The notes: generated by a model not told the origin, from the sequence alone. Positions 12,841-50,090 are shown, numbered from the stretch's first letter. The stretch: 64,000 nucleotides of DNA from an uncultured bacterium (GCA_964428355.1 CAYRYU010000026.1:11521-75520); one strand, 5' to 3'. Translations and numbers: made by a program.

Positions 12841-13322
12841 GGCCGGACCACCAGAAACATCATTGTCTCCGTGCTCTTGGCAAGACCTGCGTTGCCGGGG
12901 CGGGTCCAGGAGACGAAGGCCTCCACTCCGATCGCGTTCTTCGTCCCTTCGGCGAAACGGAATATCGCCCCCATCTCGAAATCCTTGTAGCCCCGCTGGA
13001 TGGAAACCACCCCAGATGCAGTCAGGTTCAGCCCCCGCCGGTTGAGTTCCGCCCCGTCGTATGCCTGGTAGACGATCGAATCGACCGGAACGAGTTTGAC
13101 GAGCCGGTTGAAATCCTGACTGAGGATCTCATGATGGAAGGACTCCAGGATCTTTCGGGCCATCGCGATCTTGGTGGCCTCGATCTCCTGGGCCGCGCCC
13201 TGGATCAGATGACGGTAGATCGGAACGGCGGCGAGAACGAAGATCACGACGGAAATCAGGATCTCGAGAAGGGTGAACCCCTCCCGACCCCGGAATCCCC
13301 ATTTTGCCTCACTGTTTGACAT
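12837..13322 (-). CDS. prepilin-type pseudopilin (module C, second gene)
   Basis: ...GFRGREG|FTLLEILISVVIFVLAAVPIY, a class III signal-peptide motif. Overlaps both neighbouring genes. Confidence 0.85.
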   Translation of the reverse strand: MSNSEAKWGFRGREGFTLLEILISVVIFVLAAVPIYRHLIQGAAQEIEATKIAMARKILESFHHEILSQDFNRLVKLVPVDSIVYQAYDGAELNRRGLNLTASGVVSIQRGYKDFEMGAIFRFAEGTKNAIGVEAFVSWTRPGNAGLAKSTETMMFLVVRP

Positions 13323-15993
13323 ATTGGAGGTTCAACCACCTTTTCCCCAGGGAAGCATGATACCGCCTTGGCTCGAACTTGCCAACGTCCCTCATGACGG
13401 ACAGGGGAGTGATCCTGCAGGCGGCGGCATTGAAATAGACCTCGACACTGTTGATGAAGGAACGGTTGAACTGGTTGATGACCAGGTTGCCGTCAATGAC
13501 CAACGGGTTCCCCGCGGGGTTCGTCAGCGTGGCGTTCGAGAAACAGGCCGCCTCGATCCGGGTACAAGGCTTCCTGACCATGATGCTTCCCGCACGGGCC
13601 ATCAACGTGAAAACCACATCCCCCGGCCGACTGCCGGGAGTCCCTGGATCCTTGTCCTGACGCATGATGTCGGTCTGCACGAAGATGTTGCCCTTCGCGA
13701 CGAGAATTCCCTTCCCCTTTACCTTCCAGGGCTTTCCGGCCTTGTCGGCGGTGATCCGCAGGCTTCCCTTGATGTAGGTCACCCCGGTGCAATCGAACAC
13801 CCCCTTGTCGGACCTCCCGCCTTCTTCGATGGGGCGGCCCACGTCCCGCCAGAAGTCCTCCTCGTTCTCGTAATAATGGGTCGCCTTTTTCGCATACTGA
13901 AGGATGCTATAGACGTTCTCGGGCATGTTCCGGAACTCGTAGGGAGACCATTGTCCGGTATCGCTCTTTTCGAAGGCAGGTTTTCCGACGAGCCCGAAAT
14001 CGTTTTCCGGCACCCGGTACTCGATGTATGACTCGGTCAGGTCCTTCGGCGGGGGACCGGCCCCCTTGGGAAGCACTCCCACATGAACGTTGCCGTATCG
14101 CATCTGCATAAAGGCTTCCGCACGCAATCCAAGGGGATATTCGATGTGACCATATCCGAAAAGGAGGCTCGGGGCGGCAAGGCCGTCGCACTGTTGGAGG
14201 ATCTTGAGGAGGTTCTTCGTCCCTACCGGGATGAAAGGCCGGATGGAACGGTCGGTGTTGTGAAGGACGGGGAAATCGACCTGGTGGGGCCGGTCGGGAT
14301 AGGCCGTCATGTCCAACCAATTGAAGGTCGGAATCCATTGGAAGATCGGGGGATCGACCGAGTTGGGCTTGAACTTGTCCATCGTCATCGCGTTGTATTC
14401 CGTCTGGAATGGCTCGTCCTTGGAGCCGATGAAGGTGTTTATCTTCATCATCCCATCGGAATTGACCCGGACGAGGCCTGGTACGAGGCAATTGGAGTCG
14501 GGGGCCGGAGTCCCGCCACACCCGTCGAACCCTGTCAATGCCCGGTAGTCTCCACCCGGAAGAGGACTCCCTTCCGGAAGCGGATGGACCGTGAAGGTGG
14601 CGAGGATCCCTGCCTTTTCACGTTCCGGGGGAAAACGCCACTCGATGGGTTTGCCTATCCGCGAAATATCGGCTGGATCGGGAATGGCGTTCTTGTCCTC
14701 GGGGCGTTCGAAAAGCAGGGGCGAGTTGGCCACGAAAAAGGCATACTCGGGCGCGGGCGGCTGGAGATCGGAAACCTTGAACTCCCGGTCGGCCTGGAGA
14801 ACCTTTCGGATATGGATTCCGCCCCCCCCTGTTCCGCCCTGGACAAACTCGACATGGGCGGTCAGACGGACTGTCCCGACTTTCTCGATTACCAGGGGTT
14901 TTGCCCCGAAGGCGGTCGAACGTTCCTGGCGCAACCGCTCCACATCGATCGGAGGGGGGAACGGCGGAAGTTTGTCCCATCCTGCCCGTATCGACTGATG
15001 GAGAACCCCTGCCCTCCATTCGACGCGGGAAAGGAAGTCCTCGATCTCACCCATGATCATCGAGCGGATCGAGGGCATCGAAACCCGCTTCCCCTTTGGG
15101 AAAGCCACGGTCTTCCGGATCTCCTCATCGATATCGAGCAGCCGCGGGTTCTCCTTCATCATCCCGGAGATGTCCAGGAAGCCCAGCGCGACGATCTTGG
15201 TGAAGATCTTGATGGCAGTCTCGGAAAGCTTGTCGAGGAATACCCGGGCCTGGGCAAAGATGGCCGCCAGGCCGACGAGAACCACCTTGTGCTCGTCGTG
15301 AGCGGCCAGATTCGGCAGTTCGAACCTGAACCGGGCATCGCTGGAAAGGCTTTTCAGGGACCCACCGGATTCCGGAACCCGGTCAATGCCGTCGAGAAAG
15401 CGGCTGGGTTCACCCCAGGCCGGGGTCGGAGGGATGGTAATCCCCGGAATCTCGTACTTTTCGTTGAAGGCGGCGAACCCCTGTGCCTGCAGTATCTCGC
15501 AGGTAACCTTGAGGCTGGGGACGTTGGAATTCCCGCCGAGGTCGTCCACGAGATCCTTCAGGGCCATGAGAGGTTTCTTGTCGATTCCCTCGAAAACCAG
15601 AGGCGGAGGAAAGAAGGCAGGTTCGAGGCCACCGTTTCCCCGCCCAAGGGGAGAAGCCTGGGGGTTCGGCGAGGACAGCGGGGCGATGAACCGGAAGTAG
15701 GCGAAAAGCTGGGGGTCGTCCTCGGGGTTGACGTTGTCCTTCAGGTATCTTGCGACAAGTTCGACCGCGGCCTCCGCAAGCGCCTCGACCCGTTTCTCGT
15801 GGCTCATGAACCGGGTCGAAAAACGCCGCGAATGGCTCGTGCGGAAATAGCCTACCAGAAGCAAAGCCAGGAGAACGACGATTCCCACCGTGATCACGTA
15901 GGCCGTCCCCCTTCGGTTTCCACCCTCCTGGGGACGCGAATGGGAAGGGATCGGGGGGGCGAAGTCAGCCGAAGATCCGTTTCCTGAGTGCAT
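13309..15993 (-). CDS. giant GspK/PilX-like N-terminally anchored protein (module C, first gene)
   Basis: 894 aa. N-terminus RRGTAYVITVGIVVLLALLLVGYF resembles the GspK/PilX RG-x-A-L-x-x-V-L anchor and lacks E+5. It shares blocks with the 19253 and 50967 products, for example REFKVSDLQPPAPEYAFFVANSPLLF. Confidence 0.8.
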   Translation of the reverse strand: MHSGNGSSADFAPPIPSHSRPQEGGNRRGTAYVITVGIVVLLALLLVGYFRTSHSRRFSTRFMSHEKRVEALAEAAVELVARYLKDNVNPEDDPQLFAYFRFIAPLSSPNPQASPLGRGNGGLEPAFFPPPLVFEGIDKKPLMALKDLVDDLGGNSNVPSLKVTCEILQAQGFAAFNEKYEIPGITIPPTPAWGEPSRFLDGIDRVPESGGSLKSLSSDARFRFELPNLAAHDEHKVVLVGLAAIFAQARVFLDKLSETAIKIFTKIVALGFLDISGMMKENPRLLDIDEEIRKTVAFPKGKRVSMPSIRSMIMGEIEDFLSRVEWRAGVLHQSIRAGWDKLPPFPPPIDVERLRQERSTAFGAKPLVIEKVGTVRLTAHVEFVQGGTGGGGIHIRKVLQADREFKVSDLQPPAPEYAFFVANSPLLFERPEDKNAIPDPADISRIGKPIEWRFPPEREKAGILATFTVHPLPEGSPLPGGDYRALTGFDGCGGTPAPDSNCLVPGLVRVNSDGMMKINTFIGSKDEPFQTEYNAMTMDKFKPNSVDPPIFQWIPTFNWLDMTAYPDRPHQVDFPVLHNTDRSIRPFIPVGTKNLLKILQQCDGLAAPSLLFGYGHIEYPLGLRAEAFMQMRYGNVHVGVLPKGAGPPPKDLTESYIEYRVPENDFGLVGKPAFEKSDTGQWSPYEFRNMPENVYSILQYAKKATHYYENEEDFWRDVGRPIEEGGRSDKGVFDCTGVTYIKGSLRITADKAGKPWKVKGKGILVAKGNIFVQTDIMRQDKDPGTPGSRPGDVVFTLMARAGSIMVRKPCTRIEAACFSNATLTNPAGNPLVIDGNLVINQFNRSFINSVEVYFNAAACRITPLSVMRDVGKFEPRRYHASLGKRWLNLQYVKQ

Positions 15994-17237: not shown

Positions 17238-17594
17238 ATGGATGCTTTTTCGATTCGCATTGAATCTCATGATCCCGTGACGATCATCCGGATCCAGGGC
17301 TATCTTGCTCTGGAGGCCGGCCAGGAGCTTCACGAAAGGTTGTTCGATCTTTTGAAGCAGGGAAAACTCCGCTTCCTCCTCGATTTTTCCGAGTGCAAAC
17401 TGATCAGCAGCCCCGGAGTGGTGAGCCTTCTCGAACTGGTGATCAAGGTAACGGATGATTTCCGGGCCCGAATTGCGATCTCGGGACTGGACGACCTGAA
17501 AACAAAGGTATTCAAGATGGCCGGTGTTTCAAACATCGCCCCGGCTTTTCCGCAGGAATCCCAGGCATTGGGTCATCTCCTCAAGGACAGCTAA
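17238..17594 (+). CDS. STAS-domain anti-sigma-factor antagonist (SpoIIAA/RsbV-like)
   Basis: 118 aa. Typical layout: VTIIRIQGYLALEAGQELHERL...LRFLLDFSECKLISSPGVVSLLEL...ISGLDDLKTKVFKMAGV, with the conserved phosphorylatable Ser position (ISSPG). Confidence 0.9.
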   Translation: MDAFSIRIESHDPVTIIRIQGYLALEAGQELHERLFDLLKQGKLRFLLDFSECKLISSPGVVSLLELVIKVTDDFRARIAISGLDDLKTKVFKMAGVSNIAPAFPQESQALGHLLKDS

Positions 17595-17699
17595 GCCAGG
17601 GCCCTTTCGAGAACTGCCGGTTCCCGGAAAAAATGTAACCGTTCCCGGGTTATTCCGGTAAGGTGGGTGGGTCCGATTTCACACCGAAGGAGAAAACCA

Positions 17700-18023
17700 A
17701 TGGTTCGTTCCGCGATTTCCCTCTTCCTCGTGGTTCTGACCAGCGTCTTTCTATCCGGATGCTGCTGCCCCGCTCTTGATCTCTCAGCCCTTTTCGGGGG
17801 CGGCCAGACGACCTTGAACGCCCCTACCCAGACCCAGTCCCAGGATGCCGCCGCAGCGAAACAGACCGCCATCGAAGCAAAGGCAGCGGCTGACCAGGCT
17901 CTGGAAAAGGCGAACCAGCAACAGACGCAGATCGATGCTCTCAAGACCTCGATCAAGGAAACGAATTCCACCTCTCCGGCGGGAACATCATCCAGCACGG
18001 TTCCGGCAGCCGACTCGAAATAG
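17700..18023 (+). CDS. small lipoprotein with Ala/Gln-rich coiled coil
   Basis: ATG at 17700 preceded by AAGGAG. MVRSAISLFLVVLTSVFLSGC lipobox, then AAAKQTAIEAKAAADQALEKANQQQTQIDALKTSIKE. Confidence 0.7.
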   Translation: MVRSAISLFLVVLTSVFLSGCCCPALDLSALFGGGQTTLNAPTQTQSQDAAAAKQTAIEAKAAADQALEKANQQQTQIDALKTSIKETNSTSPAGTSSSTVPAADSK

Positions 18024-18091
18024 GGAAAGCCGGGTCCCATGAAACCAGGTTTGATGGCCCCGACAGGGATGGCCGGCCTTTCCGCAGACAC

Positions 18092-18664
18092 ATGACGGAA
18101 AAAGGGGCCAGGGTGTTCCCCGAATCGGAACTGGTGCAGAAGGCAAAGCAGGGCCTCCAGGAAGGTTACGAGGGGCTCGTCGACCGCCACCTCGGGGGAG
18201 TGCATGCCTTTCTCATGCACCTCCAGGCACCGGAATCGGTTCGTGATGACCTTGTCCAGGAAACGTTCGTAAAGGCATTCCGGTCTATCGGAGGCTTCGA
18301 TGCCTCGAAACCCTTCGGATCCTGGCTCCTCACGATCGCAAGGCATGTCCTTTACGACCATAATTCCAACGCGAAGAGACAACTCGAAGCCCGGAGCCCG
18401 CTCGGGAGGCCGGCCCCCCACCACGATATCTCCCAGGGAGTCATCGATCGCCTGTCTGTCAGGCAAATCCTGACCAGGCTTTCCCCTGCCGACCGCCTTC
18501 TGATAGAGCTTCGCGTTTTCCAGGGGATGTCCTTCCCCGAAATCGCAGGGCTGTTCGGAGAAGCGGTTGGAACGATGAGGGTGAGGTTGCATCGAATCCT
18601 CGCCGGGCTCAAGGAAAGGATCAATGACGCGGAGGAAAGGGAAAACAGGAATGAACAAGCCTGA
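18092..18664 (+). CDS. ECF-type RNA polymerase sigma factor (sigma-70 family)
   Basis: Region 2 (DDLVQETFVKAFRSIGGFDASKPFGSWLLTIARHVLYD) and region 4 (LSPADRLLIELRVFQGMSFPEIAGLFGEAVGTMRVRLHRILAGL). Confidence 0.9.
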   Translation: MTEKGARVFPESELVQKAKQGLQEGYEGLVDRHLGGVHAFLMHLQAPESVRDDLVQETFVKAFRSIGGFDASKPFGSWLLTIARHVLYDHNSNAKRQLEARSPLGRPAPHHDISQGVIDRLSVRQILTRLSPADRLLIELRVFQGMSFPEIAGLFGEAVGTMRVRLHRILAGLKERINDAEERENRNEQA

Positions 18665-19256
18665 ACTCTGCCGGGACGTTTTCGACATCCTGTCCGGGGC
18701 ACCGGCAGGAGACCTTCCGCCCCACCTCGCCGCTCACCTTGCCGACTGTTCGGAATGCAGGGCGTTGAAAGCCACCCTTTCGGCTGTTGCCGAAGCCCGT
18801 TCGACTCTCGATCCAACAGTTCATGACAGTCTGAAAGCCGGAATACTCGGATCGGTGTGCCCGGCGGGTCCCTCGTCGACCGAGGGGGGGTGCACTCCCT
18901 CGGCCGGTTTGAATGAGGAACCACAAATCCCGGAATCAACGGTTTCAAGGGTTCTGGGAATACCTGCAAAAGCCATCCCATTCGTTGCCGGGGCAATCCT
19001 CGTTCTTTTCCTGGGATTTCCCATGTTCAAGAATCTCTTGACCCGGGTTTCGGGAGGCCGAACGGCAGAAGTTTCCAAGACCTTTCTCCAGGCGCAACCC
19101 CCTGGTTCACGACCGCCACCGGGCGCGGGCGGTGCAGAGCCCGGCAACCGCATTTCGTCCGGTCCATCGCAGCCGGCAGGTTCACCTCCTGCCGAGGTCA
19201 CCGAACAATCCAACCCGACCGGTACCATGGGGATTCCCCCGGTGGACGCCAAGTGA
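18651..19256 (+). CDS. zinc-finger (zf-HC2) single-pass anti-sigma factor
   Basis: ATG at 18651 overlaps the sigma-factor stop. H-x3-C-x2-C motif (HLADCSEC). TM helix IPFVAGAILVLFLGFPMF. P/G-rich extracytoplasmic tail. Confidence 0.8.
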   Translation: MNKPELCRDVFDILSGAPAGDLPPHLAAHLADCSECRALKATLSAVAEARSTLDPTVHDSLKAGILGSVCPAGPSSTEGGCTPSAGLNEEPQIPESTVSRVLGIPAKAIPFVAGAILVLFLGFPMFKNLLTRVSGGRTAEVSKTFLQAQPPGSRPPPGAGGAEPGNRISSGPSQPAGSPPAEVTEQSNPTGTMGIPPVDAK

Positions 19257-21289
19257 TCCCGATCCGGCCCGCAGAACGAGGGAACCTGGCCAAGCATACG
19301 AGAAAGGGCATCGCACTCTGGCTGGTTCTTCTCGTCCTGATCGTCCTCGGAACCCTGGCCTTCCGCTATGCATGGATGGCCAGCTCCGGCCGTGCGGTCG
19401 TTTTCCGCTTCGAGCAGAGCGGCATCGCCCGGGATCTTGCCGATTCCGCCTCGCTCGAGGGCCTTGCCTGGCTTCAGAAAAGGACCGCCTCCCCGGAGAC
19501 CCCGGAAAGCAGGTGGCTGCTCGAACGTAGTCCCACTCCCCTTCCTCTCCCGGTTCCAATGACGCTGGAACAGGCCGGCAGGTCGATCGGCGGGGATTTC
19601 GCTCCCCTGATCGAAACCGAAGCCAGATGCCTGGATTTCCGGGGTGAAAGCAGCATGAAGAACCGATATGGGCCCGGTGAGGGCGTAGGAACCCTCGAGA
19701 TTTCGGTCCGGGTAAGGATCTCGTCACCCTCTGGCGGAGGAAAGGACCGCGCGGATGTCCATCTTTCGAGGTTCCACGATTTCAAGGTTGCCGACATCGT
19801 TAGCCCCCGGTCCAATGTAGGCCAGCGCGATTCCTACTTCCAGGGTTTCATTCTGGATTTCGCTTTCTTCCTGCGAGACGGGGTCTCGGAGTTCCGTTCG
19901 ACCCTGGGCGCGAACCTGAATTCCCGGGGAACGCGCCTTCAGATCATCCAGTCGCATCTGGACCCGGCACACCGGGGAAAGGTCTTCATCGGGGGAACCG
20001 AAGACCAGGCCGCCGACCGTCTTGTTTTTCTCAACATCGACGAAGCCCGTGGGGACCTCATTCCTTCGCTTCCCCGGAAGGTGATTCGAACGGTCGGTTA
20101 CGACGAGCTGAGGATCCTCTTTCCAAGGTTGAGGTATTACGAGGGAAAACATCCCCTTCTGCTGCCGGTTCTGAGGAAACTCCGTGGAATCTTCGAGGCG
20201 GCAAACGTTCCCCTGGTCAGAAATCAGCCCGCCGCATCCGATCCGGTGGGAATATGCGAAGACCAGGTTCGGACGTTTCTTCGCTCGGTCGCCAAAGACG
20301 AAGAGGCGAATTCCGATCCGGGCCTGGATCTCGTGATGGACCTTCCCGCGCTCCTTTCAGATCCCGCCCAGGCGGATTCGGTCCTCGAAGGAAGGCTCCG
20401 GCAGCGTTTCATCCACTTCGTCACCTTCCGCTTCGATATCTCCGGTATCGTGGATCCCACCACCCTGGTTCTCGAGCCGGATGACCGGAAGCTCCTGGAC
20501 TCCCTCCTCCCCTGCACTCCGCCCCCCTCGCCACCCCTGACGAACACGAACCTCCGGGATTTTTTGGAAAAACTCCCCGAAGTAAACGGCACCCCCCCAG
20601 ATCCCGGGCTTTCAATCATCTCCCGTTTCGACACCGACTTCCTGTACCGTCCGGGCTTGACCATGTCTAGCCGGCTTCGCCCCGATTCCTTCGCGGTTCC
20701 AAGATTCTTCAATGCGAGCGGCAGGATGATAACCGCGGGAACGCCAAACCCGGGAGGAATGGAACCGTTCGCGCACGTCAATCTCTGGGGATACCGCATG
20801 ACCGACCCCGTTTCTCTCGAAGAAATAGGGGTTCTGGACAGGAAGAACCGGAAGATCAATCTTCGGGGCATCAAGTGGACAGACGGAATGGTCTCCCTGG
20901 GAGACCCGGGAGGACCGACATCGATCGAAGGCCAGGGAATACTAATCTCAAAGGGAGGCTTCCGCATCCTGGGACCCCTGAGGAAATCGTCCCCCGAGGC
21001 CCTTTGCATCCTTTTCACCCACGGAGGGGACATCGAGGTGGACACGGACCAACCCGTCGAATCATCGCTGATAGCCATTCCCGACGGCACAACCGGAGGG
21101 GAGATCCTTCCCCTGAAAACACTCGATCTTTTCGGGGCCTTTGCGGCCAGAACCCTTTCCCTCAACAGGTGGAAAGGGAAAGGGATCCACAAGATCCGCT
21201 ATGATCCTCTTCTCAAGCGGGATTCCCCGCTCAGAAGCATCGTGATTTCTCCCGCGGTTTCCTTCCACAGGATCACGGAGGGAATCTGA
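19253..21289 (+). CDS. giant GspK/PilX-like N-terminally anchored protein (module A, first gene)
   Basis: 678 aa. The GTG start overlaps the anti-sigma stop (GTGA). N-terminus TRKGIALWLVLLVLIVLGTLA. Collinear with the 50967-52940 product: LVFLNIDEARGDLIPSLP vs PIFLNIHESLAGIIPKAP, and C-termini IRYDPLLKRDSPLRSIVISPAVSFHRITEG vs IQYDERLKPERDIYSITISPVPQFQRISES. Confidence 0.8.
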   Translation: MIPIRPAERGNLAKHTRKGIALWLVLLVLIVLGTLAFRYAWMASSGRAVVFRFEQSGIARDLADSASLEGLAWLQKRTASPETPESRWLLERSPTPLPLPVPMTLEQAGRSIGGDFAPLIETEARCLDFRGESSMKNRYGPGEGVGTLEISVRVRISSPSGGGKDRADVHLSRFHDFKVADIVSPRSNVGQRDSYFQGFILDFAFFLRDGVSEFRSTLGANLNSRGTRLQIIQSHLDPAHRGKVFIGGTEDQAADRLVFLNIDEARGDLIPSLPRKVIRTVGYDELRILFPRLRYYEGKHPLLLPVLRKLRGIFEAANVPLVRNQPAASDPVGICEDQVRTFLRSVAKDEEANSDPGLDLVMDLPALLSDPAQADSVLEGRLRQRFIHFVTFRFDISGIVDPTTLVLEPDDRKLLDSLLPCTPPPSPPLTNTNLRDFLEKLPEVNGTPPDPGLSIISRFDTDFLYRPGLTMSSRLRPDSFAVPRFFNASGRMITAGTPNPGGMEPFAHVNLWGYRMTDPVSLEEIGVLDRKNRKINLRGIKWTDGMVSLGDPGGPTSIEGQGILISKGGFRILGPLRKSSPEALCILFTHGGDIEVDTDQPVESSLIAIPDGTTGGEILPLKTLDLFGAFAARTLSLNRWKGKGIHKIRYDPLLKRDSPLRSIVISPAVSFHRITEGI

Positions 21290-21291
21290 CG

Positions 21292-21777
21292 GTGCGGAGC
21301 CTGCAAAAATGTGCCCCGTCCCGGTTTCCCCGCCCCGGGTTTTCCCTTCTCGAGGTCCTGATCGCCTGCTTTCTTCTCGCCCTGGCCCTTCTTCAACTCC
21401 TCTGGATGAACCGGTATTCCAACGAATGGGCTATGGATGCCTATTATCGGGCGATGGCAACCTCCCTTGCCCGCGAACCGATCGTGATCTTCAGGGGTTT
21501 TGGGGCACGCTGGCTCCGTGACTACGAGAAGCACCAGCTCCCCCAGTATCCCCTGGGTTGGAGCCCGATTCGGGAAGCGGACGGGGATCTCTCGATGCAC
21601 CCCGCGGAATCGGGGGTTTTCCAACGGAATATCTCCCTGACCAACCTTGAACAAGCCGGGAGCAGGGGTGTCCGGGTCACCGTCACCGTGGTTCCGGAGG
21701 GCGGGACCCGTGTCATGCGGTGGCTCCGCCGGGACCAGCTTGTACTGGAAGCCTTGATTCCGGAGGGAATGCCGTGA
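21292..21777 (+). CDS. prepilin-type pseudopilin (module A, second gene)
   Basis: ...RFPRPG|FSLLEVLIACFLLALALLQLLWMNRYSNEWAMDAYYRAMATSLAREP. Close paralog of the 52937-53419 product. Confidence 0.85.
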   Translation: MRSLQKCAPSRFPRPGFSLLEVLIACFLLALALLQLLWMNRYSNEWAMDAYYRAMATSLAREPIVIFRGFGARWLRDYEKHQLPQYPLGWSPIREADGDLSMHPAESGVFQRNISLTNLEQAGSRGVRVTVTVVPEGGTRVMRWLRRDQLVLEALIPEGMP

Positions 21778-22562
21778 GAGGGAATCTCTCAGCCTTTTTT
21801 CCGGCGACCGATTGTCGGAAGCATTGTCGGGAGCGCGGGATGACGCTTTTGGAGGCCGTCCTGGTGGTCTCCCTGGTGGTTCTTCTGCTCGGCCCGATAT
21901 ATCAGGTTTTTCACCATGGTACAAGAGCCTCGCTCAGGGGGATGCTGCACGTCGAGACGTCCATGGAAGCGATGCGCGTCCTTCGTCAGGTTTCCGACGA
22001 CCTCCGTGATTCCTGCCTTCCCATGGACGAACAGGGCTTCACCCTCGATTTCTCGAAAATGCTCGGAACCGACGGGGTTCCGCCGCTGCAGTCCTACACT
22101 TTCCTCAGATTCCCCCAACATGGTTCCCCCGACCAGGTGATGCAGTTCGCCCGCCAGGGTAAGGCATCCCGGCGGGCCAGCCGGATCACCTACCGCCTCG
22201 AGCCTCTTTCGAAAGCCGGGTTGAAACACAGGCTGATCAGGACCGAGCGATTCCATCCCGAACACCCCCTCGCGTCGACCTATCCCGGAGGGGAGAGAAT
22301 AAGCATCCTGAGCGAGCGGGTCCATTCCTTCATTCTTCTTCCCGACTCGGCACGTTCCGGAAACCGTGAGCTGCACTTCTTCTGGGTGACGCTCCAGATG
22401 GTCGATTCCCTCTCCCCCGCCGATGAGGAAAGGATTCTCCAACGAAGGGAACAGGCCGCTATCGGAGACTATTTCGACGTGGTCTACCCCGAATTCTTCA
22501 ACGCCTTCCAGAACCGGGGTTTCTTCAACCGGAACTGGCACACGGGGATTTCGGCCCCATGA
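21774..22562 (+). CDS. prepilin-type pseudopilin (module A, third gene)
   Basis: ...CRERG|MTLLEAVLVVSLVVLLLGPIYQVF. Proposed GTG start at 21774 overlaps the upstream stop (GTGA); the track ORF starts at 21720. Paralog of the 53416-54225 product. Confidence 0.8.
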   Translation: MRGNLSAFFPATDCRKHCRERGMTLLEAVLVVSLVVLLLGPIYQVFHHGTRASLRGMLHVETSMEAMRVLRQVSDDLRDSCLPMDEQGFTLDFSKMLGTDGVPPLQSYTFLRFPQHGSPDQVMQFARQGKASRRASRITYRLEPLSKAGLKHRLIRTERFHPEHPLASTYPGGERISILSERVHSFILLPDSARSGNRELHFFWVTLQMVDSLSPADEERILQRREQAAIGDYFDVVYPEFFNAFQNRGFFNRNWHTGISAP

Positions 22563-23355
22563 AGAACGCGATGATGCCAGATCCCACGAAGAAAAGGGAA
22601 AGAACCTGGTGGGTCGTGAGCCCCCAATGGACGATCGGGTTCAGGCGGATGAACTCCACGAGAAACCGGGAAACCCCGAACCATACGAGAAAGATCGCGT
22701 ATCTTCGCCCCGACCCAACCTTGAGGGGGAGCGCCAGAAGCAGGATGAACAGGGCAATGTGGCTGAGGCTTTCGTAGAGTGGCGCGGGATGGACGGAGAT
22801 CGCCGCAGGAACCGGTTCCCCCGGATACATCGACCGGAAAAGATTGCAAAGCAACGGGTTTCTTTCCGAAAGGGTGGAACACAGGCCGTTGGGAAACGTC
22901 ATCCCGAACCACGAAATGGTCGGAGCCCCATAGCAACCGTCCCCGGAGAAGAGGCATCCCAGCCTGCCGACGGCGTATCCAACAGCGAGCCCGGGGGACA
23001 TCAGGTCCCCAATCCGCAGGATCGATTGTCCTGCGTGCCTGATCCTGATCCAGCAAAGAATGGTTCCGAGGATGAACCCTCCAATAACGGAGAAACCGAA
23101 AAACGAGAAGACCGCATGAACCAGGTCGGACCGATAGGCAGGCCAGAACTCGAATACGCAGAGAATTCGTGCCCCGACAACGCCGCCGAAGATCGCCAGA
23201 ATAAACACATCGCGCAGAAGGACCATTTCCGCATCATTCTCCCGGAACTCCTTCCAGGAAAGAAAAAGGGCGAGACCGAAAGCCACCGTTACGAAAAAAC
23301 CGTAAATGGCGATCGGGAGAAGGATCGCAACCGGAAAACCAGTCCCCATCGGCAC
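22525..23355 (-). CDS. lgt: prolipoprotein diacylglyceryl transferase
   Basis: Polytopic membrane protein with Lgt-family blocks: ...GARILCVFEFWPAY..., GGFILGTILC, AVGRLGCLFSGDGCYGAPT, HPAPLYESL, VSRFLVEFIRLNP. Confidence 0.85.
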   Translation of the reverse strand: MPMGTGFPVAILLPIAIYGFFVTVAFGLALFLSWKEFRENDAEMVLLRDVFILAIFGGVVGARILCVFEFWPAYRSDLVHAVFSFFGFSVIGGFILGTILCWIRIRHAGQSILRIGDLMSPGLAVGYAVGRLGCLFSGDGCYGAPTISWFGMTFPNGLCSTLSERNPLLCNLFRSMYPGEPVPAAISVHPAPLYESLSHIALFILLLALPLKVGSGRRYAIFLVWFGVSRFLVEFIRLNPIVHWGLTTHQVLSLFFVGSGIIAFFMGPKSPCASSG

Positions 23356-23663
23356 TCCCTTTTTTCATTCTTCGGACAACCGTTAACCGCCCTTGCGCCC
23401 TTACAATTTTCCTCTGATTGGAACCGGGTGGGAAGCAGAGCAGGGTTGACTTTGCCGCGCATACTCTGCAAGAATTGCCCTATGATACCAAATGACGGAA
23501 GGCCGAAGGTGGATTCGACGATGAAAACCCGGCCAGAGCCCCAGACCGTGATTAACACAGAGTCCCCAGAGGCCACAGAGACTCCCGGTTCTGTGGCGAC
23601 TGTCGAATCTGTGCACCCGGTGGCAGCTCCTTCCTGCATGCCGGAATCTTCGCTGCGATTGGT

Positions 23664-26591
23664 ATGAGATCCTGTCCCCAGGATCCCGCCGATCTTTCTC
23701 CCGAGACCGGAAAACAGGTTTCAAGGCAAGTAGAGAGGGATGGGGATGCGGACCGTTCCCGGAACTCCCTGCTTCTCCCAATTGCATCCATCGTTCTCGT
23801 TATCGCACCCCTGGTTTTTCTGCTCTGGGCGGGGTTTGCCCTGGCCGACCAGGAAGGGGAGGACCATCGGGCTTCCGTCAGAAAGGAACTCGCGGAGCTC
23901 GCCCGCGAACTGTTGACTGAGACCGACCCGGGACACCTGACAAGGGCCGGCTTCCTTGCCTGGGTGGGGAAGGAAGGGCACACCCGTCCTCAACCGGACG
24001 AGCGGAATTCCCCCGTTGCCTGGTGGCGAAGCGGGGATGGAGCGGCTTCCTGCCCGGGTTATCTGGAAGATCTCGGCCGTTTCTTCCAGACCGGGAGTAT
24101 GGCTTCCCCATCCACTTTCTTCCGGTTGACGGACAACCTGGGCTGGGGATTCAGGCCCGCTTTCTGCCGTGACAATCCGGGACTTCCCGTCGAGGTCCTC
24201 TGGAATGGGTCCTGGCACCGGCTGATATGGGATTTCGAACCGGGAACCGATCACGTTCGACTGGCAGTCCTTCCGCCGCCCGATCAGGAAAAAGCCATTC
24301 GGGAAGCATGCGGCCGCCGTTGCCCAGGAACATCGACCGGATGGAGCGTCCTCCAGAGGACTCCGGAAAATCCATTCCGGACTGCTTCCGCGGCCCTCCC
24401 ACCCCAGTCAGCTTCCCTTCCTTACGGCATTGACGACCGGGGGCCGGAAGAAAAGGAAACCCATGTCGAGCGGATCAACCCCTGGTTGTCTTTGATCCTG
24501 GAACGCCCGGTCACCGATCCCGCACCGGGAATCAGGCTCCGGATCGCGGCCATGGCGGCAATCCTGTTCCTCTTCCTGGGTCTGGGGATGCGGAATTTTC
24601 CCCGCTGGTCCGTCCGGGCCAAGACCGGCTTTTTCGTTGTGTATCTGGTCGGCGTGCCTCTGATGATCATCCTGGTCCAGAGCGGTGCCCTGCGTAGAGG
24701 AAGGGTTTTCCGTGAGGAAAGCCGCCTTCGGCAAGAAGGGGAAGCGATGCTGCTGGACTTCGACAGAAGGTATTCCGATTTCGAAATGACTTTTGGAAAA
24801 GGCTTGAAGTCCCTTGTCGGGTCGGACTCCTTTCGTCGATCGAATCCCGAGTCTCTCCGGTCGATTATCCAGCCATTGATTGAAGGGGGACGCATCCAGG
24901 ATATTCTGGTACTCGACCAGAAGGGGTTCCCATTTCTTTCCCTCTCCAAGACACCTTTCCACGGCGAAAGGAGCCGGGTCCACCAGGAATATATCCAGTC
25001 CATCCTCGAGGAGCGAAACTCCCTCCCCCGGACCTCCCGTTCAAAGATGACCGACAGCCTTTTCGAGGTTTTCCGAAAGTCCTCCTGGGGTTCCGTGGTC
25101 GAGTCTCCAGGCCGGCTGGTCCAGTTCATGACAGAGGGAAAGCAGGTCTACAGTTTCATCTATTTCTTCCCCCAAGGAAAAACAGACCCGGGCGCAAAAG
25201 GGCGCCCCACACCGGAGTCCCCCGATCCGCGAGGGAAGGCCGAAGAAGCTCCCAGACCCGGAGCGGTCCTCATCCAGATGGGGATGGCGGAGGTTGCCAG
25301 GACATACCTGAAGCAAAACCTGCCCGGCAACTGGAAGTTCCGGATCTCGGCAAGGGAAAGGGAGACTGGAAACTGGTTTCCGGATCCGACAACGGAATTC
25401 CCCGCCTTCGAGGCTTTCGTGGATTCTGTTGCCCGTCAGAAGCGACTTCTCAACTGGTCCTTTCCGACTCCCGACGGGACCGCCCTCGTCCTTGGGAGGC
25501 CTGGACAAAGGCTTGCGGGCTATGACCTCATCGCGTTCATTTCCCCTGAAAAACTCGCCGCCGGCCCTGAGGAATGGACGCGAAGCCTTTTACTCCAGGC
25601 AGGCCTCTGCATGATCCTGCTCATGGCGGGCTGGTGGTTCCTGAGCACGAGCGTCATCGGGCCTCTTCGGGAAACCCTCGAGGGCGTCCAGAATCTCCGG
25701 CGCCGCCGCCTCGATTACCGTATCCAGACAACATCCGGAGACGAACTGGGCAGGCTGGGCGAGGCGTTCAACCAGATGTTGGAGGTTTCCAAGGAGATCC
25801 AGGCCGCAAGGGAAGTCGAGGAAAGGCTCCAGCCACCCGGTGACCCGAAGATCCCGGGGATCTCCTTCCGGACATGGTATTGGGGCGGGCTCGCCCTGGA
25901 CGGTTGCATTAGGGATTGGTTCGAGCTTCCGGATTGCTCCTGGGCAATTCTTCTGGGAACCTCGCACGGGCGGGGAATCACCGCCGCCCTGGGTTCGGGA
26001 ATGGCTCGGGCGATCATCATTTCCCATTGTCAGGAGGGTCTCGACCCCGCCGGCCTTTTCCCTCGCATCCACAAAGCCTTCCTCAGCCTGCAGGGCCCCG
26101 CCCAGGCAAGCGATTCGGGAAGTCGCCCTGCAGCCCCTCCCGTCTCCCTTTGCCTGTTGATCTACCACCCCGCCGGCCATTCCTTCGTAGCCCACCAGGC
26201 GGGGTTTCCCCGCCTCGCCCTTTGCAGGGCGCAGAACGGGCAGATTTCCTTCCCCCCCAACCCCGGGATTCCTCTTGGGTCGATCGAGCGTTTTGAAACG
26301 GGGGTTTTCCGGGAAACCCTCTCCGAAGGTGACTCCATCGTCCTGGCCTCGGTCCCCCCGGTTTCGGATTCCTCCGTTGAGTCCACCGAAATGATCCGGG
26401 AGTCTTTCCACGGATTGGTCCGGAAAGCCGGGAACCCTCTTGAGGGGGATTTTCCGGACCATTTCGGTTCGGGGTTGGAAGGGGAGCTGGGGGAGGTCCT
26501 CAAACGGGGGGTCAGCGCGGTCGTGATCCGCAGAAATCGCAGCTCCACTCCCGACCTTTCGGGGCCGTCGGAAGGGGGTGCCCGGAATTGA
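23664..26591 (+). CDS. large membrane sensor protein, HAMP + degenerate PP2C/SpoIIE-like domain (predicted pseudophosphatase)
   Basis: 975 aa. Several TM segments, then a HAMP domain (IGPLRETLEGVQNLRRRRLDYRIQTTSGDELGRLGEAFNQM). The C-terminal domain aligns to SpoIIE but carries LGTSHGRGITAAL in place of GDVxGHG, GDSIVLASV in place of SDGLxE, and GVSAVVIRR in place of DDxTxLxLRR. Confidence 0.85.
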   Translation: MRSCPQDPADLSPETGKQVSRQVERDGDADRSRNSLLLPIASIVLVIAPLVFLLWAGFALADQEGEDHRASVRKELAELARELLTETDPGHLTRAGFLAWVGKEGHTRPQPDERNSPVAWWRSGDGAASCPGYLEDLGRFFQTGSMASPSTFFRLTDNLGWGFRPAFCRDNPGLPVEVLWNGSWHRLIWDFEPGTDHVRLAVLPPPDQEKAIREACGRRCPGTSTGWSVLQRTPENPFRTASAALPPQSASLPYGIDDRGPEEKETHVERINPWLSLILERPVTDPAPGIRLRIAAMAAILFLFLGLGMRNFPRWSVRAKTGFFVVYLVGVPLMIILVQSGALRRGRVFREESRLRQEGEAMLLDFDRRYSDFEMTFGKGLKSLVGSDSFRRSNPESLRSIIQPLIEGGRIQDILVLDQKGFPFLSLSKTPFHGERSRVHQEYIQSILEERNSLPRTSRSKMTDSLFEVFRKSSWGSVVESPGRLVQFMTEGKQVYSFIYFFPQGKTDPGAKGRPTPESPDPRGKAEEAPRPGAVLIQMGMAEVARTYLKQNLPGNWKFRISARERETGNWFPDPTTEFPAFEAFVDSVARQKRLLNWSFPTPDGTALVLGRPGQRLAGYDLIAFISPEKLAAGPEEWTRSLLLQAGLCMILLMAGWWFLSTSVIGPLRETLEGVQNLRRRRLDYRIQTTSGDELGRLGEAFNQMLEVSKEIQAAREVEERLQPPGDPKIPGISFRTWYWGGLALDGCIRDWFELPDCSWAILLGTSHGRGITAALGSGMARAIIISHCQEGLDPAGLFPRIHKAFLSLQGPAQASDSGSRPAAPPVSLCLLIYHPAGHSFVAHQAGFPRLALCRAQNGQISFPPNPGIPLGSIERFETGVFRETLSEGDSIVLASVPPVSDSSVESTEMIRESFHGLVRKAGNPLEGDFPDHFGSGLEGELGEVLKRGVSAVVIRRNRSSTPDLSGPSEGGARN

Positions 26592-29374
26592 CCTACTTTA
26601 GAAAGGCCCAGAATTTTCTCCTGATCCTGGTTTTCTTCTTCCTTCCCTGCTTCGGGATCTTCCTTTCGTGGGAGGAGGATTTTCTTGCCGAGAGCCGCCA
26701 AATCGAGGACCGCCAGATGGAGGATTTCCGGCGAACCGCATGGCACGGTGCCTTCGTTCATCGACATGCCCCGATGGTCGCAAGACTCGGAAACGCCTTT
26801 TACAGCGGGATCCGGAAGGGAGACCCCTTCGCGTATGTGGCCTCGCTTCCATGGGATCTCCCCTCCTTCGCCAACCTCGAGATAGCCATCTTCCCAAGGG
26901 GCGGGAAACTGGTATCTCCCCCCGGGTCACCAGTGTCTTCGCGAAAAGTCTTTACGGTCCTCGCCAAGGACCTGGAGGACGGTCATCTTCAGGAAAAGAA
27001 CGTTCCCTGGGCCCAGTCAGCTGTTGGACCTTATCTTGCCCGGGACCTGGAATGGTTTCCGGGAGTGACGATTTCGAGACCGGATCCAAAGGGTGAGAAG
27101 TGGTTTTTCTGGAAGATCGACCCGGACGGAAAAGGAGTGATGATCCTCTCGCGCGGTGTGACCAGGCCTCTCGAACCTTGGAGGAAATGGCTCCGCCGAA
27201 GGAAAGGCAAGAGTCGGGATTATTGGCTCCTTGACCGGCGAAACGGGAAATGGATCGGGACCACGGCCCTTGATGAGGAATCCCGGGCGATCATCAGGAG
27301 AGCTCCCCGAACCGGCTGGGGAAAGGAGCGGAGCAGTAGCGATTCCCTCTATTTCACCGGAGTTCTGGGGAACGACCTTATGATGGTACTCCGCACGGTA
27401 GATCCTGACGTAGCCGCCAGGAAAAAGGCCGCCAGAGCCTGGGTCCTTCTGGGAATGCTGCTTCCGGCGTGTTGGATGGTTTCGCTCCGGGTCCACCTCC
27501 TCGAGTTGCCCCTGTTTTCACGGTTGGTAGCGATTTTCCTCTCCCTCACGCTCCTTCCGCTCTACCATCTTGGCCGCCTGGGAACCCGATGGAGTGAGGA
27601 CCGCCAACGCGAACTGCTCGATCGGCGCCAGGAAAGCAATCTCGAAACCTTGCGCAAAACCGATTCCCGCATTTCCGAGATCGTTTCCGACGAAATCAAC
27701 CTCGCAAAGGGACTCTGGAAAAGGATCGTCACCGAGAAACCCGATCCTGTGCGAAGGAAAGAAATGCTCGAAAAGGCCCGGGCGGGAGAACTGTTCCTCG
27801 TTTACCGTGTCATTTCAGGGGAAGGGGGAATCCTCGATCAGACCTCCGTAAGAAACGACCAGGGGGAGCTCCAGCTTTTTTTTGGACAGGAGATGCTGAG
27901 GCGCTACGGAATCCTGCATACACCAGGGCATTGGGCGATGACGGCAATCCTTCGCAGCCCGCTTTTCGGGTTTTCGGGACTCAGCGACCGGCGGGGAGAG
28001 GAAGTCCCCTGGCAGATGGACAATTCGTGGGCAGCAACCTCATTCTGGGATGTGGATCCCCACGCGACCGCAACGGAACCGGCTTTCTTCTTCTGGTTCT
28101 TTTCAATCGGAAGGATTCTTCCCGAACTTCTTCGCCGGTCCCCCCAAGGAATGTGGATTCAATCCCCCAACTATTGGACCCGTTGGGAACCCAACATCCC
28201 TCAGGTCCCATGCCCCGACGACCTTTTTGCGCAAAGCTGCATGGGAGGTGAACCCGCATCGAGAGTGGTCCGGCACCGGGGCCGGCCGTATCTTGTGACC
28301 CTCCTTCCGACTTCCCATCTGCTCTTCCGGACCACTGTCTTGATGACCATAGCCGACCTGGGTCCGGAGGCGGAAATGCTCCGGACCCAGTCACGGCTCC
28401 TGTGGTCTGGGGTTGTGACCAGTCTTCTTATCGTCGGCATACTTGCGCTGGTGATCAGCCGCTCCTTTCTCGTCCCGGTTCGCAGGATCTCCAACGGTAT
28501 CAGGACAATGGAAGAAGGCCGACTGGACGCGGCGATTCCCGATCTCGGACCCGACGAATTCGGTGAGCTCGGAAGGGCTTTCAACGACATGATGGCGGAA
28601 CTCGCCGAGCACGACCGGGCACGGACCGTACAAGACAGTCTGATTCCCGCCGTGCCACGAACCCTTCCAGGGTTCGAGGTCGCATTGCGCTACCAGCCTC
28701 TCCACGGTCTCTGCGGGGATTACACAGACACCCTCTGCCTGCCCGACGGGAAACTCCTCCTGGTATTGGGTGACGTCACGGGTCACGGTGTTTCCGCCGC
28801 ACTGATGGCTACCATGGCCAAGGCAATCTGCTCCCTGAGCGTTCTGGAGGGGCTCGATCTCGCCAGACTCTCCCAGCGTCTCAACCACGTGATCGCCATG
28901 GTGGGAAAGCGCAGGCAGATGATGACGATGTTCGCCGCGTGTCTGGATGCAGCGGCGGGAGACCTGGAATGGACCGGAGCAGGGGCTCCATTTCCCTTGA
29001 TGCGTCAAGGGGATGGAAGCGTGAAGTTCCTCGAACAGGTAGGATTCCCGCTCGGAAGTTCCGCCGCGAAACGCAACAAACCGGAAAAACTGGCTTTCCC
29101 TGATGGGGCGGCCCTCCTGATCTACTCGGACGGCCTGTACGAAGCCCTGGACGAGAGTCAGAACCCCTTCGGCTTCCCACGTCTGGAAGCCCTGCTCAAG
29201 GCCCGCGGATTCCTTCCTGCGGAAGGACTGGCCTCCGAACTGATGAATTGTCTGAGGAAACACCAGGGCCGGACGCCTCCCGCCGACGACACCACGATCC
29301 TGATTCTCCGCCGGGTTTCCAACCCGGTATCCCCGCATCCGGCTGTCGATTCCACAGTGCTTCCAGAGAAATGA
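26588..29374 (+). CDS. large membrane sensor phosphatase, HAMP + canonical PP2C/SpoIIE domain (RsbU-like)
   Basis: 928 aa. The TTG start overlaps the upstream stop (TTGA). HAMP domain (VPVRRISNGIRTMEEGRLDAAIPDLGPDEFGELGRAFNDM). SpoIIE motifs CGDYTD, LGDVTGHGVSAALMA, YSDGLYE and ADDTTILILRR. Confidence 0.9.
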   Translation: MTYFRKAQNFLLILVFFFLPCFGIFLSWEEDFLAESRQIEDRQMEDFRRTAWHGAFVHRHAPMVARLGNAFYSGIRKGDPFAYVASLPWDLPSFANLEIAIFPRGGKLVSPPGSPVSSRKVFTVLAKDLEDGHLQEKNVPWAQSAVGPYLARDLEWFPGVTISRPDPKGEKWFFWKIDPDGKGVMILSRGVTRPLEPWRKWLRRRKGKSRDYWLLDRRNGKWIGTTALDEESRAIIRRAPRTGWGKERSSSDSLYFTGVLGNDLMMVLRTVDPDVAARKKAARAWVLLGMLLPACWMVSLRVHLLELPLFSRLVAIFLSLTLLPLYHLGRLGTRWSEDRQRELLDRRQESNLETLRKTDSRISEIVSDEINLAKGLWKRIVTEKPDPVRRKEMLEKARAGELFLVYRVISGEGGILDQTSVRNDQGELQLFFGQEMLRRYGILHTPGHWAMTAILRSPLFGFSGLSDRRGEEVPWQMDNSWAATSFWDVDPHATATEPAFFFWFFSIGRILPELLRRSPQGMWIQSPNYWTRWEPNIPQVPCPDDLFAQSCMGGEPASRVVRHRGRPYLVTLLPTSHLLFRTTVLMTIADLGPEAEMLRTQSRLLWSGVVTSLLIVGILALVISRSFLVPVRRISNGIRTMEEGRLDAAIPDLGPDEFGELGRAFNDMMAELAEHDRARTVQDSLIPAVPRTLPGFEVALRYQPLHGLCGDYTDTLCLPDGKLLLVLGDVTGHGVSAALMATMAKAICSLSVLEGLDLARLSQRLNHVIAMVGKRRQMMTMFAACLDAAAGDLEWTGAGAPFPLMRQGDGSVKFLEQVGFPLGSSAAKRNKPEKLAFPDGAALLIYSDGLYEALDESQNPFGFPRLEALLKARGFLPAEGLASELMNCLRKHQGRTPPADDTTILILRRVSNPVSPHPAVDSTVLPEK

Positions 29375-42100: not shown

Positions 42101-42240
42101 CTGGGCCCAGACCCGAATGCTGGCAAAACGCCGGCGAAGTTCCTTCGGTTCCATTGGAAGATTCTACCGGATTCGCCAGCTGGGAAGTTTCATGATCCAC
42201 CTCCCGGAAACCCGTACCGGAACCAATATGGATTACTGAC

Positions 42241-50003: not shown

Positions 50004-50090
50004 ATCCGGTCGGGTCGGGTGAACCTGGCCTTCCAGATGTCCCGAGCCAGACCCCAGTTTCCGCCTGGAGTTGGTGCCTGCCCCGTTTCT

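Follow-up and report, generated by a model that had tools for sequence, protein, structure and literature searches.

Introduction

Bacterial phosphatases of the PP2C/SpoIIE type start general stress, sporulation, and developmental programs. Two Chlamydia proteins of this kind, RsbU (CT588) and CT589, are consecutively encoded, paralogous membrane sensors of about 650 amino acids with two transmembrane (TM) helices; they are described with one periplasmic domain and a cytoplasmic PP2C-like domain, and only one of the two has the metal ligands. RsbU has intact Mn2+ sites, a HAMP linker, and a STAS-domain protein, RsbV1, as its substrate. RsbU is active on RsbV1, and the role of its paralog CT589, which is without metal ligands, is unexplained (PMC4552016). 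Both the formation of a heteromer with RsbU and the sequestration of RsbV1/2 have been proposed for CT589 (PMC5177608), and genetic manipulation of the CT588 and CT589 genes was unsuccessful in one study (PMC4552016). The idea of a dead-plus-live pair has thus already been put forward for RsbU and CT589, which are the closest precedent for the gene pair analyzed here. This pair, A1 and A2, lies at positions 23664 to 29374 of a stretch of 64,000 nucleotides from an uncultured bacterium (GCA_964428355.1 CAYRYU010000026.1:11521-75520), referred to below as the window.

Other described systems resemble the pair in part. The studied enzymes of the RsbU, RsbP, and SpoIIE type are homodimers with two active sites and are soluble, except for SpoIIE, which is polytopic with a different N-terminal region. 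A2 is like them in its full-length SpoIIE family domain with all ligands, its N-terminal sensor, and its helical linker, whereas A1 and A2 together form a fixed pair of diverged paralogs, of which one is dead and in which the sensor has four TM helices and two periplasmic regions. The metal-dependent protein phosphatase (PPM) domain of Escherichia coli RssB is without catalytic residues and is a bacterial precedent for the keeping of such a domain in a noncatalytic role; RssB is, however, a fusion to a response regulator, is soluble, and brings sigma-S to ClpXP, and it has neither an active paralog as a partner nor a membrane sensor. In pseudokinase-kinase and other pseudoenzyme-enzyme heteromers, a dead paralog is likewise retained by selection, as a presumed allosteric or scaffolding partner. 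An animal example of a PPM pseudoenzyme is PHLPP2 (PMC12002173). The pseudokinase-kinase systems and PHLPP2 are eukaryotic, and PHLPP2 has no active paralog as a partner, whereas A1 and A2 are overlapping genes of a bacterial operon. Searches of a collection of papers for SpoIIE pseudophosphatases and for HAMP/Cache-SpoIIE heterodimers found no description of the A1/A2 family.

Results

Gene pair and junction

The initial annotation of the window had described two consecutive genes, of 975 and 928 amino acids, joined by a TTGA overlap, and the open reading frames (ORFs) were recovered exactly so. The upstream gene, A1 (23664 to 26591, plus strand), starts with ATG and encodes a 975-amino-acid membrane sensor whose HAMP domain is followed by a PP2C domain with degenerate catalytic residues. 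The downstream gene, A2 (26588 to 29374, plus strand), starts with TTG and encodes a predicted membrane sensor of 928 amino acids in which HAMP is followed by a canonical PP2C phosphatase domain. At the junction (26570 to 26591, plus strand), the TTG start codon of A2 (26588 to 26590) lies over the TGA stop codon of A1 (26589 to 26591), and a purine-rich sequence, GGAAGGGGG (26570 to 26578), is found 10 nucleotides 5' of the A2 start. The TTG with which the A2 ORF opens is the sole standard start that keeps the N-terminal TM helix, because no further ATG, GTG, or TTG lies between the two.

Metal-binding residues and fold of the PP2C domains

The catalytic PP2C domain of A2 (residues 719 to 909; 28742 to 29314, plus strand) matched the SpoIIE family (PF07228) at 135.4 bits, with a cut-off of 25, over profile positions 1 to 191 of 192, and the A2 sequence matched the PP2C structures of Rv1364c, RssB, and SiaA. 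Every PPM motif that had been claimed for A2 was located (CGDYTD at residue 709, GDVTGHG at 728, YSDGLYE at 846, and ADDTTIL at 899), the metal-binding residues being D711/D714, D729, D848, and D900/D901. The PP2C-like domain of A1 (about residues 746 to 960; 25899 to 26543, plus strand) also scored above the cut-off, at 48 bits, over profile positions 4 to 130 of 192 only. The motifs quoted for A1 in the initial annotation are present as well (DGCIRDW at 746, LGTSHGRG at 764, GDSIVLASV at 889, and GVSAVVIRR at 949).

The loss of several catalytic Asp residues from A1 had been read from a manual comparison, and we therefore give the result of three alignments: MAFFT with 20 relatives, hmmalign to a canonical PP2C hidden Markov model, and hhalign of the clade profiles, in which the PP2C profiles of the A1 and A2 clades aligned with a probability of 100% (E 6e-44). 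In all three, C748 of A1 stands opposite D711 of A2 in motif 1, with D751 (equivalent to A2 D714) retained, and T766 of A1 stands opposite D729 of A2, the Asp of the GDV motif, which we take to be the residue that bridges both metals in PPM structures. For the third motif, hhalign placed V897 of A1 opposite D848 of A2; in the alternative given by MAFFT, D902 reaches the SDG Asp through a 5-residue insertion, and D902 is unconserved among A1 orthologs. For the fourth motif, hhalign placed E941/L942 of A1 opposite D900/D901 of A2 with low confidence, in a gapped, poorly conserved stretch, and E941 is unconserved within the A1 clade; if the register is instead taken from the final beta-strand of the model (SAVVIRR), G949/V950 fall opposite the two Asp residues, in agreement with the initial annotation. 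The profile alignments thus bear out the claimed loss, with Cys, Thr, and Val standing in place of three Asp residues out of four, and neither hmmalign nor hhalign restored an acidic residue at the A1 metal sites, the second Asp of GDxxD alone being kept. Judged from these alignments, A1 has lost at least three of the four metal-ligand Asp positions and probably the remaining one as well.

An AlphaFold2 (AF2) model of A1 residues 640 to 975, built from a 71-sequence alignment, had a mean predicted local distance difference test score (pLDDT) of 89.6 and a predicted template modeling score (pTM) of 0.82. When the pseudo-domain was compared with the PDB by Foldseek, it matched Pseudomonas aeruginosa RssB, Rv1364c, SpoIIE, RsbX, and SiaA with E values of 1e-11 to 1e-9 and target-normalized template modeling scores of up to 0.81. 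The top match, which included the linker helix, was P. aeruginosa RssB (3eq2 and 3f7a; E 1e-11), and E. coli RssB (8t85 and 6z4e) was also among the structural matches. The pseudo-domain of A1 is therefore confidently predicted to keep the PPM fold, and A1 is a structural member of the PPM fold family, as a pseudo-phosphatase rather than as an active enzyme. A sequence search of the PDB with the C-terminal domains of A1 and of B1, the upstream member of the second pair in the window, returned nothing relevant, so the pseudo-domains are recognized by profile and fold methods only. Within its PPM domain, A1 carries a low-complexity insertion, PAQASDSGSRPAAPPV, at residues 811 to 826 (about 26094 to 26141), which is absent from all relatives and at which the confidence of the structure model is lower.

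Relatives of the pair

A word-indexed homolog search with A1 recovered A1 itself alone, because the members of the family have diverged too far to share 5-mers. When 1.84 billion representatives were searched exhaustively with phmmer, 1,625 relatives were recovered, most of them 900 to 1,000 amino acids long, and the Asp columns were scored in the best 150 of these, 123 of which were fully canonical. The nearest relatives of A1 (P0002, P0003, P0004, and P0021) share its degenerate positions and are 24 to 30% identical to it at full length, P0002 being 30% identical over residues 32 to 896 of A1; P0026, P0039, and P0056 are also degenerate at the Asp columns. The GDV Asp is replaced by Thr, Arg, Ser, or Glu in every member of the A1 clade, and the sensor motifs LGWxFxP and WFP are conserved between A1 and its degenerate relatives.

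Five of these degenerate genes are each followed immediately, across an ATGA overlap, by another HAMP-SpoIIE gene: P0002 (locus L013), P0003 (L014), P0004 (L015, from Candidatus Ozemobacter sibiricus BY5), P0021 (L016/L017), and P0026 (L101). P0056 (L102) overlaps its downstream HAMP-SpoIIE gene by 7 nucleotides, and this partner ends at the contig end. Partners were canonical wherever their sequence was complete, five of them, including those at L013, L015, and L016/L017, having all four Asp motifs; the partners at L014 and L102 are incomplete, the former (3943 to 6495, 850 amino acids) having motifs 1 and 2 and ending before SDG. Pairing holds for each of the eight degenerate members examined, which are A1 and B1 of the window and the upstream genes at L013, L014, L015, L016/L017, L101, and L102. 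The degenerate member is always the upstream gene, and no pair examined has a degenerate downstream member. At L013, a gene for a dCache-HAMP-GAF-GGDEF diguanylate cyclase (3896 to 6004) shares 4 nucleotides with the beginning of the pseudo-phosphatase gene, so that three genes for membrane sensors are translationally coupled in a chain.

Scanning genomes with A2 revealed nine further loci, labeled as Candidatus Riflebacteria, Candidatus Methylomirabilis, or uncultured metagenome-assembled genomes, all of which are tandem pairs of genes of about 930 and 956 amino acids that overlap by 4 or 11 nucleotides and are canonical in both members. L103 (P0006) is another canonical-canonical pair. Overlaps of 4, 7, or 11 nucleotides were present in all related pairs examined. 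The neighbor conservation by which the initial annotation could be judged is thus found in two forms, as tandem HAMP-SpoIIE pairs at the nine genome loci and as a partner with a 4- to 7-nucleotide overlap beside each degenerate relative examined. Of the two outcomes that would have refuted the initial annotation, acidic residues at the A1 metal sites in a profile alignment and a pair not conserved as neighbors, neither was obtained. Irregular cases were also seen. At L104, P0012 is partly degenerate and its partner (7775 to 10458) is split into 673 and 222 amino acids by a frameshift in the HAMP region, and at L100 the canonical P0005 is solo and is followed, with a 4-nucleotide overlap, by a 71-amino-acid ORF (2749 to 2964) that may be what is left of a former partner. 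The irregular partners at L014, L104, and L100 may be products of misassembly or of genuine decay. When genomes were scanned with a four-sequence alignment of the pseudo clade, only Candidatus Ozemobacter sibiricus and one weak match were returned, and a metagenome scan, in which a generic HAMP peptide pattern dominated, gave no new pseudo-clade loci and only unrelated HAMP proteins.

Phylogeny and constraint

Neighbor-joining trees were built from Poisson distances over about 900 aligned columns with 200 bootstraps and are adequate for well-supported clades only. The upstream and downstream genes form two paralogous families (bootstrap values of 96 and 100, respectively), within which the degenerate A1 clade, or pseudo clade, had a bootstrap value of 94 to 98 and the partner clade one of 80. 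Both clades contain the same five lineages in the same groupings, {window, L013, L014} and {L015, L016}, and a second sub-family, L101 to L104, is present on both sides of the tree. Because lineages and groupings match, we conclude that the two genes have been passed on together and that the A1 clade took its dead state from its ancestor. The dead gene has accordingly persisted alongside its partner over a divergence of about 25 to 30% identity. The degenerate upstream genes of L101 and L102, and B1, fall outside the A1 clade, which suggests that catalytic loss happened several times independently, with long-branch effects being possible.

Constraint was measured as mean pairwise identity by region in the pseudo clade and in the partner clade. 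Identity was 23% in both for periplasmic region 1, 23% and 24.5%, respectively, for periplasmic region 2, and 42% and 37% for TM helix 4 plus HAMP, the best-conserved region of the pseudo clade. The corresponding values were 34% and 62% for the linker (alpha0), 36% and 50% for the N-terminal part of the PPM domain (motif 1 to alpha2), 26% and 37% for its middle part, and 18% and 32% for its C-terminal part, so that conservation in the pseudo clade falls progressively toward the catalytic C terminus. By this measure, the sensing and HAMP parts of A1 are as constrained as those of the live partner and the catalytic part is relaxed, the pattern expected of a sensing or regulatory subunit and not of a relic. 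The status of A1 as a pseudoenzyme is strengthened because its orthologs are degenerate alike, the clade splits match, a PPM fold is predicted, and the sensor and HAMP regions are equally conserved. As far as comparison of sequences can tell, A1 is a functional pseudoenzyme and not a decaying gene.

Membrane architecture and sensor regions

Hydropathy and Pfam analyses agreed with the architecture that had been proposed for both proteins, namely an N-terminal TM helix, a large region, a TM cluster, a second large region, a TM helix, a HAMP domain, and a SpoIIE domain. Four TM helices were found by hydropathy scan in A1 (residues 36 to 54, 289 to 312, 321 to 339, and 642 to 665) and four in A2 (residues 10 to 28, 284 to 304, 304 to 331, and 605 to 623). 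Since the N terminus and the loop between TM helices 2 and 3 are basic, both large regions are placed in the periplasm and the C terminus in the cytoplasm; the two periplasmic regions of A1 are of about 235 and 300 amino acids. BLASTP between A1 and A2 detected similarity from TM helix 4 onward only, at 32% identity. Profiles of the two ortholog groups aligned over 872 columns, from TM helix 1 to the C terminus (hhalign probability of 100%, E 2e-57), and A1 and A2 are therefore full-length paralogs.

In A1 (all features on the plus strand), TM helix 1 (23769 to 23825) is part of a helix that spans residues 13 to 86 in the model. Periplasmic region 1 (residues 55 to 288; 23826 to 24527) is modeled as a stalk helix followed by a smaller alpha/beta module, with AF2 pLDDT mostly above 85. 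It is followed by the TM hairpin (24528 to 24680; hydropathy and model), formed by TM helices 2 and 3 and a short basic cytoplasmic loop, in which the motif WS.R.K..F..YL..VPL is kept across the A1 clade. Periplasmic region 2 (residues 340 to 641; 24681 to 25586) is modeled by AF2 as a long stalk helix and two PDC-like alpha/beta modules in a double-Cache-like arrangement, and TM helix 4 and the HAMP domain (residues 659 to 707) lie at 25587 to 25784. The sensor region of A2 (26615 to 28456, plus strand) comprises TM helix 1, periplasmic region 1 (residues 29 to 283), the hairpin (284 to 331), periplasmic region 2 (332 to 604), and TM helix 4, and its HAMP domain (residues 622 to 673) lies at 28451 to 28606 (plus strand). 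HAMP (PF00672) was found directly behind TM helix 4 in both proteins, at 41.9 bits in A1 and 52.2 bits in A2.

No Pfam family, Cache included, matched residues 1 to 640 of A1 or 1 to 604 of A2 at E <=0.1, so the initial view that the sensor regions hold no recognizable domain stands at the level of sequence; it does not stand in predicted structure, in which double-Cache/PDC matches were obtained. The AF2 model of A1 residues 1 to 670 had a pLDDT of 87.8 and a pTM of 0.85, and its best interpretable Foldseek matches were dCache/PDC structures (3lie, 3lib, 3lid, 2p7j, 5ave, 6mni, and 5wbf), with a probability of 1.0 and E values of about 1e-4, and with low target template modeling scores of 0.3 to 0.4. 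Foldseek gave no query coordinates, and these matches were assigned to periplasmic region 2 by topology: the order of a stalk helix from TM helix 3, a distal module, a proximal module, and an exit helix into TM helix 4 is that of a dCache domain, as in the sensors of histidine kinases and chemoreceptors such as Mlp37 (5ave), PscC (6mni), and TlpC (5wbf). In contrast to the usual two-TM Cache receptors, A1 and A2 have two periplasmic regions parted by a TM hairpin. The sensor regions are predicted to be Cache/PDC-like in structure, which is not a statement of family membership.

Second pair and genomic surroundings

A second pair, pair B, occupies 55393 to 61550 on the minus strand, with B1 (58548 to 61550, 1,000 amino acids) upstream of B2 (55393 to 58551, 1,052 amino acids). 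The genes are joined by an ATGA overlap, and GGAGGAGG lies just 5' of it. B2 is canonical (SpoIIE, 137 bits), and B1 is more degenerate than A1, with no SpoIIE Pfam match, a weak HAMP match, and the motifs AGSFFM, GEIRHSG, TPG, and GE. From their positions on long branches outside the A clades, the loss in B1 looks independent of that in A1.

A 414-amino-acid plus-strand ORF (22423 to 23667), with ATGA at the A1 start, was considered as a coupled upstream gene and rejected as spurious: it is low in complexity and antisense to the genuine lgt gene for prolipoprotein diacylglyceryl transferase (22525 to 23355, minus strand; PF01790, E 1e-40). This makes A1 the first gene in an operon of two that diverges from lgt. 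The lgt-A1 intergenic region contains a promoter-like site (TTGACT, 18-nucleotide spacer, AAGAAT; 23446 to 23475, plus strand), which position alone favors, as a scan for promoters and terminators found nothing beyond chance (1 promoter-like site, with 1.1 expected). The flanking ABC transporter is 71 to 74% identical to Candidatus Riflebacteria genomes, and the window thus comes from a Riflebacteria-type organism. An origin from a bacterium of the Planctomycetes-Verrucomicrobia-Chlamydiae (PVC) group, which would have made the pair orthologous to that of Chlamydia, was rejected on the same transporter identity.

The window holds one candidate RsbV-type phospho-substrate, a STAS-domain protein of 118 amino acids (17238 to 17594, plus strand; PF01740, E 3.5e-7). 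It belongs to a plus-strand cluster (17238 to 22562) that also encodes a 107-amino-acid ORF, an extracytoplasmic function (ECF) sigma factor, a 210-amino-acid protein, a 678-amino-acid protein, and two proteins with prepilin N-methylation motifs (21292 to 21777 and about 21840 to 22562). The 210-amino-acid protein has no Pfam match and lies where an anti-sigma factor would be expected. A STAS gene close to an ECF sigma factor gene is an uncommon arrangement, and the two may form a regulatory module of their own.

Many small prepilin-motif proteins (PF07963) occur across the window (12208 to 13322, minus strand; 21292 to 22562 and 53353 to 54225, plus strand), adjoining large family-less proteins such as those at 13309 to 15993 (894 amino acids) and 19253 to 21289 (678 amino acids). 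Domains typical of eukaryotes are found in proteins at 39434 to 41092, 61908 to 63890, 7683 to 9131, 48717 to 50003, and 9652 to 12003; they comprise Vps62 with an FRG1/fascin-like domain (552 amino acids), a PLA2_B lysophospholipase (660 amino acids), ankyrin repeats, a TPR-ankyrin fusion, and HEAT repeats. A 973-amino-acid protein (50019 to 52940, plus strand) with a single central TM helix (residues 326 to 344) and no Pfam match is of the size of the sensors and is unrelated to them by BLAST. A 263-amino-acid ORF (41670 to 42461, minus strand) matches the Schlafen group 3 helicase family at its C-terminal end only (PF09848, E 4e-9) and is possibly a fragment.

Discussion

The comparative data lead us to consider it fairly probable that A1 and A2 work as one heteromeric membrane sensor phosphatase, a reading in which we infer the physical heterodimerization, the direction of regulation, and the substrate. 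The two proteins would be made from one two-gene operon by coupled translation, each chain crossing the membrane four times and carrying two Cache/PDC-like ligand-binding periplasmic regions, a HAMP domain, a helical linker, and a cytoplasmic PPM-fold domain. As dimers, HAMP domains form four-helix bundles. PPM phosphatases of the RsbU type, those with a HAMP linker among them, become active when their phosphatase domains dimerize through crossing linkers and an alpha0-alpha1-alpha2 switch (PMC12143880). In a mixed dimer, only A2 would bind the catalytic metals and provide the sole active site. A1, which keeps the sensor regions, the HAMP domain, and the switch-containing N-terminal part of the PPM domain, would be the regulatory or sensory subunit, adding a second, different set of periplasmic inputs and a partner surface that switches the A2 active site on or off. 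The likely output would be the removal of phosphate from a serine of a STAS (RsbV-like) protein in a partner-switching pathway.

Several observations weigh against this heteromer. Canonical-canonical tandem pairs are common in related genomes, and adjacency and overlap alone are therefore no proof of heteromerization. The alpha0 linker, at 34% identity in the pseudo clade and 62% in the partner clade, is unlike a strictly symmetric interface, and the trees are neighbor-joining trees of very divergent sequences in which some deep nodes are weak (44 to 64%). As for the output, the only STAS gene of the window lies 6 kb upstream of the pair in the separate cluster with the ECF sigma factor (18092 to 18664), no RsbW-like or HATPase protein was found among the window ORFs scanned, and none of the called genes with Pfam annotation that flank the orthologous pairs encodes a STAS protein; these flanking genes showed no recurring Pfam family either. 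With neither a kinase nor a STAS gene linked to the pair, the STAS substrate is a family-based guess; the partner-switching components may be encoded elsewhere in the genome.

A stricter form of the heteromeric reading is tentative and, in our view, rather doubtful. It holds that the pair is an obligate asymmetric heterodimeric receptor, the bacterial equivalent of a pseudokinase-kinase receptor pair, with up to four distinct Cache-like modules on two chains, a mixed HAMP bundle, and a single PPM site, and that catalytic activity was lost several times over (by the A1 clade, by B1, and by the lineages of L101 and L102) from a canonical heterodimer that was already obligate and in which one site was redundant.

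Among the explanations that do without a heteromer, the one that survives best, although we think it unlikely, is that A1 is an independent homodimeric noncatalytic receptor whose dead PPM domain binds or sequesters a STAS protein, phosphorylated or unphosphorylated, or another partner, acting as a decoy or adaptor relative to A2. The A1 model retains the PPM fold, and strict pairing would also suit an antagonist that is needed in a fixed ratio to the live phosphatase. There are precedents in E. coli RssB, whose PPM domain serves as an adaptor (PMC12143880), and in the sequestration of RsbV1/2, one of the two roles proposed for CT589 (PMC5177608). However, the C-terminal third of the A1 domain, which makes up much of the substrate-facing surface of a PPM domain, is the least conserved part of the protein (18%, with variable insertions), which suits a conserved role in substrate binding poorly, and the parts best conserved in the A1 clade are HAMP and the switch side of the fold.

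It is less probable still that A1 and A2 are independent, co-expressed sensors, A1 signaling through its HAMP and TM regions to a third protein or contributing to the structure of the envelope. In favor of this explanation, conservation of the sensor regions is as high in A1 as in A2, and operons of unrelated sensors do exist, the coupled dCache-HAMP-GAF-GGDEF gene at L013 being an example. This explanation nevertheless leaves unaccounted for the canonical paralog downstream of every degenerate member, the matching lineages and groupings of the two clades, and the retention of the PPM fold, and Pfam shows no other output domain in A1.

We regard as very improbable that A1 is a phosphatase with other ligands or another chemistry, for which D751, D902, E941, and H768 would be the candidates. 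D751 of motif 1 is retained, D902 can be aligned to the SDG Asp by MAFFT with the 5-residue insertion, and hhalign sets E941 opposite the first Asp of the DD pair; yet the GDV Asp is replaced in A1 and all members of its clade, neither D902 nor E941 is conserved among the A1 orthologs, and the Pfam match spans only the first two-thirds of the profile. That A1 is a recently inactivated duplicate and a functionless relic, as its lost catalytic residues, its poorly conserved C-terminal region, and the low-complexity insertion at 811 to 826 might suggest, is effectively refuted by the intact 975-codon ORF, by a dead state common to orthologs at 24 to 30% identity from several metagenomes and Candidatus Ozemobacter sibiricus, by a conservation of the sensor, TM, and HAMP regions equal to that in the active partner, and by a domain that is confidently predicted to fold.

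The heteromeric reading of A1 and A2 brings the pair close to Chlamydia RsbU and CT589 in arrangement. Orthology with CT588 and CT589 is unlikely, since A1 and A2 are set apart from the descriptions of the Chlamydia proteins by size and TM topology, being proteins of 930 to 975 amino acids with four TM helices and two periplasmic regions in Riflebacteria. The A1/A2 family also differs from the Chlamydia pair in that a 4-nucleotide overlap, matching clades, and recurrence are documented for it; we know of no equivalent data on overlap, clades, or recurrence for RsbU and CT589. In this sense, A1 and A2 provide a second case of the arrangement, probably of independent origin and spread over a broad phylogenetic range.

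The analysis defines two uncharacterized paralogous families, in Riflebacteria and related uncultured bacteria, that combine four TM helices, two Cache-like regions, HAMP, and a PPM domain, and it provides a simple annotation rule for their pseudo-members. The sensory switching of PP2C/SpoIIE phosphatases has only recently been explained, through regulated dimerization (PMC12143880), and a conserved pair with a dead dimer partner would be a natural asymmetric version of this switch. Such a dead-plus-live pair would part the job of the allosteric partner from catalysis and suggests how two sets of periplasmic signals join on one output. If the obligate asymmetric heterodimer proves true, the family would form a natural series leading from a symmetric signaling enzyme to an asymmetric sensor-plus-catalyst machine and would offer a testable model for Chlamydia CT589.

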